Virus record (IMG/VR): IMGVR_UViG_3300026097_000017
Span: 16,074-80,073 of that record
DNA: 64,000 bases
Strand: one strand, 5' to 3'
From: a virus
Below, one piece after another: positions 1,250 to 3,469 of the stretch. Within the stretch, counting starts at the first letter, position 1. Every line of letters begins with the position of its first letter. The position numbers and the translations under genes were made by a program. Below the pieces are notes generated by a model. It was not told the origin of the DNA. It did not search any database and worked only from the letters and a program-made list of their open reading frames with translations.

Positions 1250-1258
1250 AAAAATAAA

Positions 1259-1416
1259 TGGCGGAACGGGGGGAATCGGGTAACCCCCAAGGAGGTACTA
1301 TCTGATGTACCTTTCCGAATGGACCTCCTACAACTCGCAACCTCGCTAAAGGTATGGACGCTATCCCTTTGAGTTTACCTTATCCCCCATCAGCGAGAGA
1401 TATTCGGTCACGTTCC
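1259..1416 (-). ncRNA. tRNA-like structured ncRNA ending in CCA (158 nt)
   Basis: 5' GGAACG pairs with 3' CGTTCC-GCCA; GGGGG/CCCCC T-arm-like stem; internal stems CTCGCTGA/TTAGCGAG, AAGGTA/TACCTT, AGGAGGT/ACCTCCT; lies in the tRNA cluster. Confidence 0.7.
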
Positions 1417-1475
1417 TATCGGTGTTGCAATCACCGAACTCGGTTTGTCTAATGATTATTTCATTAGACTGAAAA

Positions 1476-2846: not shown

Positions 2847-3043
2847 GCATTTGGCAAAACTTTTTTTGTAATATTTTCAAATTTTCTACGAGACCGACTG
2901 AATGACAGCGGTTTATTGAAGAAGAATGGTGCGCTTTCACCCTCACGCTTGAAGGCAACCAGTTTCCCACCCTCATTAAGATAATAAGTGTGTGGGTACA
3001 AACCTTCAGTCGTTTCTACTAGCACTTTGCAGTAGTCACTCAT
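2843..3043 (-). CDS. hypothetical early protein
   Basis: 66 aa, ATGA overlap with the upstream gene. Confidence 0.7.
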   Translation of the reverse strand: MSDYCKVLVETTEGLYPHTYYLNEGGKLVAFKREGESAPFFFNKPLSFSRSRRKFENITKKVLPNA

Positions 3044-3438
3044 ACTGTCACCTCCAAGTCAGCATACTCTTCGTATGGAAGAGGCTCGCAATCATCAGGC
3101 AAACCTTTCTTCCACTCGGCAGCAAGAGCCTCAGCTTCTTGCTCTTGCTCAAACTGAAGACGGAGCTGGTAACAGATATTCTCGTAGGTCTGTTCCAGAT
3201 CCTCAATATCCATTTCGTCCCAAGCAAGACGCATGCGGCAACCATAGAGGTCTTTCGACGCATCACTGATGCCATTGATCAGCTCATTACGCTTGAAGTC
3301 CTCTACAGTGTAGACACCCATCTCAGCCCAATGACTCAAGTCATCAGTGTACTTAGACATCCACAGTCCAGGTTCCTGCTCCATCATCAGATCAGCTTTA
3401 GCATTCAAGGACTCAATGTATTGAAGTAAACCAGACAT
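3040..3438 (-). CDS. acidic hypothetical early protein
   Basis: Start at MSGLLQY (3438) with GAGG RBS, downstream of a promoter. Confidence 0.75.
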   Translation of the reverse strand: MSGLLQYIESLNAKADLMMEQEPGLWMSKYTDDLSHWAEMGVYTVEDFKRNELINGISDASKDLYGCRMRLAWDEMDIEDLEQTYENICYQLRLQFEQEQEAEALAAEWKKGLPDDCEPLPYEEYADLEVTV

Positions 3439-3469
3439 AATAAAACCTCTTTTTCTCAACAACAAATAT

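Follow-up and report, generated by a model that had tools for sequence, protein, structure and literature searches.

A reduced relative of the manA RNA, probably a stand-alone RNA gene, in the tRNA arrays of marine T4-like phages

The manA RNA (Rfam RF01745), an orphan to this day, became a "riboswitch candidate" in 2010, when Weinberg et al. (PMC2864571) classed it as a probable riboswitch located in 5' UTRs and marked its structure with "pseudoknot?". A 2026 preprint (bioRxiv 10.64898/2026.07.01.735769) describes canonical manA RNAs that self-assemble in vitro through kissing loops and form RNA-only decamers and 60-mer cages, and gives three intermolecular kissing loops for manA pentamers, i.e., L3-L8', L5-L7', and L8-L9'. 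Two other kinds of RNA come close to the locus reported here, by position or by likeness to tRNA. In phage T4, the tRNA cluster ends with tRNA-Arg followed immediately by the genes of two non-tRNA stable RNAs, rnaC (species 1) and rnaD (species 2), of 119-139 nt. YrlA (RF02553), whose likeness was invoked in the original prediction for this locus, is a non-tRNA RNA with a tRNA-like module.

The RNA studied in this work is encoded in an 80-kb IMG/VR virus record with an estimated completeness of 44%, from which a stretch of 64,000 nt (the window) was analysed. A CCA-ending tRNA mimic with a large structured insert had been predicted at positions 1259-1416 of the minus strand, in line with two phage tRNA genes. 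The predicted stretch does encode a conserved, folded RNA, a reduced relative of manA as catalogued in Rfam. We propose, with a probability of roughly three in four, that positions 1256-1445 (minus strand) encode a stand-alone RNA of ~190 nt belonging to a reduced manA-related clade that is found in the tRNA arrays of marine T4-like phages.

Locus, carrier phage and homologues

The DNA polymerase of the carrier phage shows 53% identity to gp43 of T4-like Prochlorococcus and Synechococcus phages, and near-identical DNA was found mainly in marine-plankton and marine metagenomes, with partial matches from saltern metagenomes. The gene order on the minus strand, on which all features given below are located, is the end of a DUF932 gene, tRNA-Arg, tRNA-Asn, the manA-type RNA, and a methyltransferase gene. 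The upstream DUF932 gene is closed by a terminator-like hairpin with a T-run (1813-1837), detected in a terminator scan. A possible promoter of the RNA operon, TTGCTT-17 nt-TATAAT (1768-1796), was read by eye and is putative; it was not called in a consensus promoter scan, and its first hexamer matches at just three of six positions. The two tRNA genes, tRNA-Arg (TCT, 1558-1634) and tRNA-Asn (GTT, 1476-1551), were identified by ARAGORN and score 71.2 and 74.1 bits, respectively, against the Rfam tRNA model. The gap between the promoter-like site and tRNA-Arg holds a hydrophobic mini-ORF of 32 aa (MEYTQNYLDVILLGGVLVVAAIYLIAKSDCKF, 1641-1739), and a similar small hydrophobic ORF is present at this place in L002. 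Between tRNA-Asn and the manA-type RNA, and outside the RNA family, there is a spacer hairpin of 9 bp (1447-1469, GUCUAAUGA/UCAUUAGAC, direct reading) that may be a processing site; among related loci only L224 has one, with one wobble change. On the 3' side, a small hairpin (1235-1249) is followed by a gene for a SAM-dependent methyltransferase of 177 aa (672-1205; Pfam Methyltransf_23, E 4.2e-9; PHROG 24759), which is not a conserved neighbour of the manA-type RNA. Just 3' of the U-rich tail, L097, L202, and L224 have a second conserved element, GGAAUGACUGCGCC...AGACAGUCCC, and the window has the different small hairpin at 1235-1249 instead.

No match to the RNA was detected by blastn in 50,697 GenBank phage records, nor in 80 loci having the upstream DUF932 gene in common, and the nearest DUF932 relative (L002, 93% amino acid identity) has tRNA-Met, tRNA-Arg, and tRNA-Pro at the site and no manA-type RNA; the RNA is therefore not bound to the DUF932 neighbourhood. 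Viral contigs were then scanned with two patterns. The manA core pattern (GTGACYGAATA ... TAAGGT) yielded mainly canonical cyanophage-type manA RNAs, plus a few shorter variants, and a 21-mer from the long hairpin yielded 29 loci of the window type, which reduce to 24 distinct sequences. When a genome collection was scanned, the RNA was found on only two tiny MAG contigs, L233 (JALQTW010000061.1, 652 bp) and L234 (CALBDR010000389.1, 1730 bp), both carrying full-length copies (218-221 bits with R1, a covariance model built from window subfamily sequences alone). The two contigs are binned in Patescibacteria and Melainabacteria MAGs; they are probably mis-binned phage fragments, so that no host is assigned from them.

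An ORF of 141 aa at 3040-3465 (minus strand), with a weak YaeQ match, shows ~72-75% nucleotide identity to counterparts in the RNA carriers L209, L217, L218, L220, and L225, indicating that some of the carriers have this neighbourhood in common. At the equivalent site in relatives, ~1-3 kb downstream of the DUF932 gene, a phage-encoded tmRNA (ARAGORN tags ANDN...LAA) is found in L003, L004, L011, L016, L018, L023, L025, L028, L030, L036, L037, L045, L047, L050, and L053. L172 encodes a permuted tmRNA (3137-3435; RF04321, 88.6 bits) 1.5 kb from its own manA RNA. The site after the DUF932 gene looks like a hypervariable cassette site for stable RNAs.

Relationship to the manA family and conserved fold

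Positions 1259-1437 align end to end with the Rfam manA model (model positions 1-192) at 49.8 bits, with E-values of 8.5e-12 in a search of 601 nt and 2.7e-13 in a search of the 80-kb record; none of 14 control genomes matches the model. The core strands GUGACYGAAUA and UAAGGU are part of this alignment and are invariant in the 24 homologues. The score is 5.4 bits short of the Rfam gathering score of 55.2 bits, and at gathering thresholds only the two tRNAs, and no manA, are called in this region. The original prediction had stated that a strong match to a known Rfam family would mean that the RNA is not novel, and the full-length manA match is in essence such a match, though below the gathering score. 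Each of the 11 subfamily loci scored also falls below it (42.7-52 bits, all full-length). The intermediates L172, L192, L131, and L158 reach 59.5, 63.1, 65.1, and 84.3 bits, respectively, and canonical manA loci 120-181 bits. With R1, the order is reversed: 227 bits for the window RNA, 25-70 bits for the intermediates, and 18-35 bits for canonical manA. From these two sets of scores, the clade is a divergent manA branch that lies beyond the reach of the curated threshold, and annotation at the Rfam threshold consequently leaves the slim manA genes of marine phage genomes unannotated. The cmscan alignment skips one hairpin of the model (positions ~98-115), and none of the 24 subfamily sequences has it.

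The conserved module of ~190 nt (1256-1445) consists of a short leader, the 5' hairpin P1, the manA-type core, and the first bases of a U-rich tail; it is 96.8% identical over exactly these positions in L206, L221, and L229, whose flanks have no similarity to those of the window. P1 (1419-1437; UUCGGUG/CACCGAA with a 7-nt loop) corresponds to positions 1-20 of the Rfam manA model, and compensatory changes were found at 3 of 6 pairs in A1, the alignment of the 24 distinct subfamily homologues, and at 6 of 6 in alignment A2. The closing helix, GGAACG (1411-1416) with CGUUCC (1263-1268), is 100% paired, two of its pairs showing compensatory change. It is followed by the conserved core strands GUGACCGAAUA ... 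UAAGGU (1377-1410), whose columns are invariant or nearly so across the 24 homologues and carry the signature common to canonical manA. The core strands enclose the L3 hairpin, with a covarying stem (1395-1402 with 1381-1388) and the loop GCUGAU (1389-1394), in which the bases CUGAU (1389-1393) have a partner AUCAG at 1302-1306. The inner junction (1332-1375) is formed by a stem, AACU (1372-1375) with AGUU (1332-1335), to which C1371-G1336 adds a pair in the window, and by two mini-hairpins with UAGCG-type loops (1356-1367 and 1341-1352); 4 of 4 junction pairs and 5 of 7 mini-hairpin pairs are compensated. The long hairpin P8 (1291-1328; GGAGGU/ACCUCC, 3 of 6 pairs compensated) bears AUCAG in its loop, and the terminal hairpin P9 (1269-1288; GGGGG-UUACCCGAUU-CCCCC, 3 of 5 pairs compensated) has a 10-nt loop with conserved ACCC. 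The 3' segment (1249-1268) comprises the 3' strand of the closing helix, GCCA (1259-1262), and the U-rich tail, for which the consensus is GC[C/U/A]UUU(U)AUUU in most homologues; no terminator-like site was called 3' of the RNA in the terminator scan.

In A1, the 45 pairs of the nine-helix manA-type fold are 98.3% paired and 23 of them show compensatory changes, compared with 46-58% pairing and 2-6 compensated pairs in controls with partners slid by 1-3 columns; no shuffle of A1 attained the observed values. Among 48 family members, including intermediates and canonical sequences, 96.9% of the cells are paired, with compensation at 39 of 45 pairs, in an alignment that was fitted to the model. 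The single-sequence minimum free energy fold of the RNA is unremarkable (z -0.65), so that the case for more than chance is made by the homologues and the match to the covariance model, and folding energy does not contribute to it. A tenth contact, between CUGAU (1393-1389) of the L3 loop and AUCAG (1306-1302) of the long-hairpin loop, is 100% paired in A1 (18-40% with the partner slid), with two compensated pairs and the variants CCGAA/UUCGG and CUGAA/UUCAG. In four sequences, a G-to-U change next to this loop-loop helix extends it to 6 bp. Across the family, nine more complementary combinations were found in the two loops, among them GCCAG/UUGGC, CAGUG/UACUG, UCCAA/UUGGA, CGCAA/UUGCG, and CGUGA/UCACG in distant members, and canonical manA has GGCAU/AUGCC. 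A contact between the L3 loop and a UAGCG-type loop was considered and rejected: it is conserved, yet the G-to-U change of the four sequences is uncompensated there and lengthens the L3/long-hairpin helix instead.

The sequence letters quoted in the original prediction are correct (GGAACG at 1416-1411, CGTTCC at 1268-1263, GCCA at 1262-1259, and GGGGG/CCCCC at 1288-1284/1273-1269), and three of its stems, GGA/TCC, AGGAGGT/ACCTCCT, and the closing GGAACG/CGTTCC, are borne out by covariation in the 24 homologues. AACTC/GAGTT, which was read as a possible pseudoknot, does pair and covary in these homologues, but it is the inner junction stem. Three other proposed pairings (CTCGCTGA/TTAGCGAG, AAGGTA/TACCTT, and the alternative TGGGGGA/TTCCCCC) have 0-1 compensatory changes and are broken where columns vary. 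The unit 1259-1416 was drawn too narrowly, homology to relatives elsewhere spanning exactly 1256-1445, and the hairpin at 1419-1437, which had been set apart as an upstream element, is the covarying helix P1 of the same RNA.

The same homologues bear on the tRNA-mimic reading, in which an acceptor stem, a discriminator G, CCA, and a T arm would make the RNA either a decoy for anticodon nucleases or a target recognised by RNase P, EF-Tu, a synthetase, or CCA-adding enzyme. The 6-bp closing helix is placed directly on the 5-bp P9 with a continuous 3' strand, as in an acceptor/T minihelix, GCCA follows the closing helix in the window copy, the gene lies inside a tRNA array, and T4 rnaC, at the same position, has a canonical T arm. 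However, GCCA occurs in one of the 24 distinct homologues, i.e., in the window only, and the tail sequence is not conserved, the others continuing with GCU-, GCC-, or GCA- and then a U-rich tail, or with CAUCC / ACUUU; this single copy has its encoded CCA by coincidence. The loop of the presumed T arm is the 10-nt UUACCCKAWU and not a 7-nt T loop (UUCRANY-type), the "acceptor" helix is preceded by the conserved, covarying P1, and an equivalent of the anticodon arm is absent. ARAGORN reports the two true tRNAs of the region and no tRNA or tmRNA here, and the Rfam tRNA-clan models (CL00001; tRNA, tRNA-Sec, tmRNA) gave no match on 1259-1437 even at E<=10. The most conserved bases are those of the manA core strands, not tRNA identity elements. 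We consider tRNA mimicry highly improbable; the decoy, synthetase, and EF-Tu ideas found no support here, and the remaining likeness to tRNA is one of loose geometry, the stack of a 5-bp hairpin and a 6-bp helix. The more general part of the prediction is supported: the locus is a gene for a structured stable RNA that is not a tRNA, in a row with phage tRNA genes.

Genomic context, biogenesis and expression

Of the 29 subfamily loci, 21 have a tRNA on the same strand whose end is 31-65 nt away from GUGAC on its 5' side. Exactly 31 nt separate the two in 16 of these 21, behind Asn, Cys, or Arg tRNAs, which brings the tRNA CCA right up to the 3-nt leader of P1. Nine loci have a tRNA (Trp, Met, Gly, or Ser) on the 3' side; its start is 159-202 nt from GUGAC and ~10-55 nt from the closing helix. 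Six loci have no tRNA at all. Adjacent tRNAs are found in 14 of 119 other core-pattern matches. The first downstream ORFs of 31 loci fall into at least 15 unrelated clusters. A gap of 17-18 nt separates the RNA from the start of the next ORF in L206, L219, L221, and L229, and a spacing of 17-18 nt to an ORF is found in six loci without a nearby tRNA. The module is flanked by two protein genes, and by no tRNA, in L206 (8463-8652), L221 (5241-5430), and L229 (759-948). The RNA module appears to move among genomic contexts.

The published classification of manA suggests a cis-regulatory 5'-UTR element, i.e., a riboswitch candidate in which ligand sensing would regulate the gene that follows, in the window the methyltransferase gene at 672-1205. 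Such a role agrees with the stretch from the RNA to the methyltransferase gene, which is devoid of terminator-like sites, and with the 17-18-nt spacing to an ORF start in the four loci named above. It is difficult to reconcile with at least 15 unrelated clusters of downstream ORFs, with a tRNA as the next gene in 9 of 29 loci, and with a module that remains 96.8% identical amid wholly different flanks; in addition, no alternative pairing with the downstream ribosome-binding region is prominent (fold of 1205-1262, z -1.34). The tRNA distances, the ORF diversity, and the identity that stops at the flanks fit a self-contained cassette RNA gene matured with tRNAs, and fit a gene-specific switch poorly. 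Control of the downstream gene is therefore improbable as a general explanation, although it may play a 5'-UTR role in some contexts, given the 17-18-nt spacing to ORFs and the absence of a called terminator. The wiring into tRNA arrays and the ever-changing neighbour genes argue that at least this branch of manA consists of RNAs that stand free and are processed, rather than of gene switches.

The constant distance of 31 nt from the CCA of differing upstream tRNAs, together with the U-rich tail 3' of the closing helix, could also mean that the RNA has no function in trans and serves the tRNA operon passively, in processing or stability, as a structured cap or spacer at the 3' end that protects or punctuates the polycistronic transcript. 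We regard this as very unlikely, since a cap would need far less than ten covarying helices and invariant unpaired strands in a length of ~190 nt, the same RNA occurs without any tRNA in six loci, and the canonical relatives are mostly located away from tRNAs.

In the stand-alone RNA gene that we favour, the manA-type RNA of tRNA arrays is probably released as a free RNA. It would be co-transcribed with tRNA-Arg and tRNA-Asn from one upstream promoter and, judging from the gene order, might be freed by the tRNA-maturation nucleases of the host. The 5' end would be generated by a cut just past the CCA of the upstream tRNA, and the 3' end, where a tRNA follows, by RNase P cleavage at the 5' end of that tRNA. 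This scheme of processing enzymes is modelled on the tRNA operons of T4 and E. coli. The released RNA would work in trans and would not be a switch for the next gene.

Metatranscriptome contigs of 55-239 nt from four studies (two salt marsh, one marine, and one seawater) cover 1256-1445 at 90-100% identity. In four contigs, one per run, the fit stops at 1256 with other sequence beyond, two contigs reach 1445, and in one RNA-library contig the RNA is joined directly to tRNA-Arg, as in several IMG/VR loci. The divergence past the low-coordinate (3') end at 1256 indicates that the contigs come from relatives. The uncovered flanks at 1000-1237 and 1646-1950 were discarded as evidence because these relatives have other flanks. 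The contigs give a hint that the module is expressed as RNA, with the reservation that ends, strand, and level are not readable from them and that RNA libraries can contain DNA.

Possible assembly and comparison with known RNAs

On sequence grounds, the L3/long-hairpin contact could be intramolecular or intermolecular. With a tentative matching of the helix numbering, it would be the L3-L8 contact of the preprint and the "pseudoknot?" of Weinberg et al., and the hairpin missing from the present clade would be the L7 partner of L5-L7', in which case an assembly of the canonical style may not apply. More speculatively, by analogy to the kissing loops of canonical manA, the contact may form between copies of the slim manA RNA and give rise to oligomers. 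That the released RNA kisses its own copies to form a closed, RNA-only ring or cage in the infected cell, a scaffold or container built by the phage, is a tentative idea that we hold to be unlikely; if it were true, the tRNA-array setting would supply both the expression level and the exact ends. The family-wide covariation of the two loops shows that the contact is selected in nature and is more than a feature of in vitro assembly. With one hairpin fewer, the clade offers a minimal natural manA for probing which contacts are needed in folding or assembly.

Among the described RNAs, T4 rnaC and rnaD resemble the window RNA in position, a non-tRNA RNA in line downstream of phage tRNA genes, and the biogenesis by tRNA-processing enzymes that is established for T4 would be expected here as well. 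They differ in that rnaC has a canonical T arm (CCGGGUUCGAAUCCCGG) and the window RNA does not. Neither the Rfam manA model nor R1 matched the rnaC/rnaD region of T4 (70908-71171). R1 "matches" in T4 with E ~1e-3 are located on tRNA genes, came from a search with filters off and with roughly calibrated E-values, and were dismissed as noise. A YrlA match was likewise rejected: the sole match to RF02553, at 23.6 bits (cut-off 69 bits; E 0.012), is on the true tRNAs at 1525-1591.

Canonical manA loci such as L090, L095, L113, and L119 have a TATAAT/TATATT-like box ~10-15 nt before the 5' hairpin, and a T-run is often found 3' of canonical cyanophage-type manA RNAs; the canonical cyanophage-type manA, too, looks like a self-contained small-RNA gene and not a UTR.

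The closest described relative of the window RNA is manA itself. The two have in common the order of helices, the core strands GUGACYGAAUA/UAAGGU, a full-length alignment to the model, a closing helix followed directly by a terminal hairpin with a long AC-containing loop, a complementary pair of L3 and long-hairpin loops, and marine T4-like phages as carriers. The window RNA differs in being ~20 nt shorter and in lacking the hairpin at model positions ~98-115 (ACCA-type loop), and in its clade two mini-hairpins with UAGCG-type loops take the place of the GUGGUG loop. The genomic settings are also distinct: the window RNA is not in a 5'-UTR position before mannose/fructose, nucleotide-synthesis, ibpA, or photosynthesis genes, having a methyltransferase gene downstream, and its clade is found in tRNA arrays in 72% of loci, as against ~12% of the other matches.
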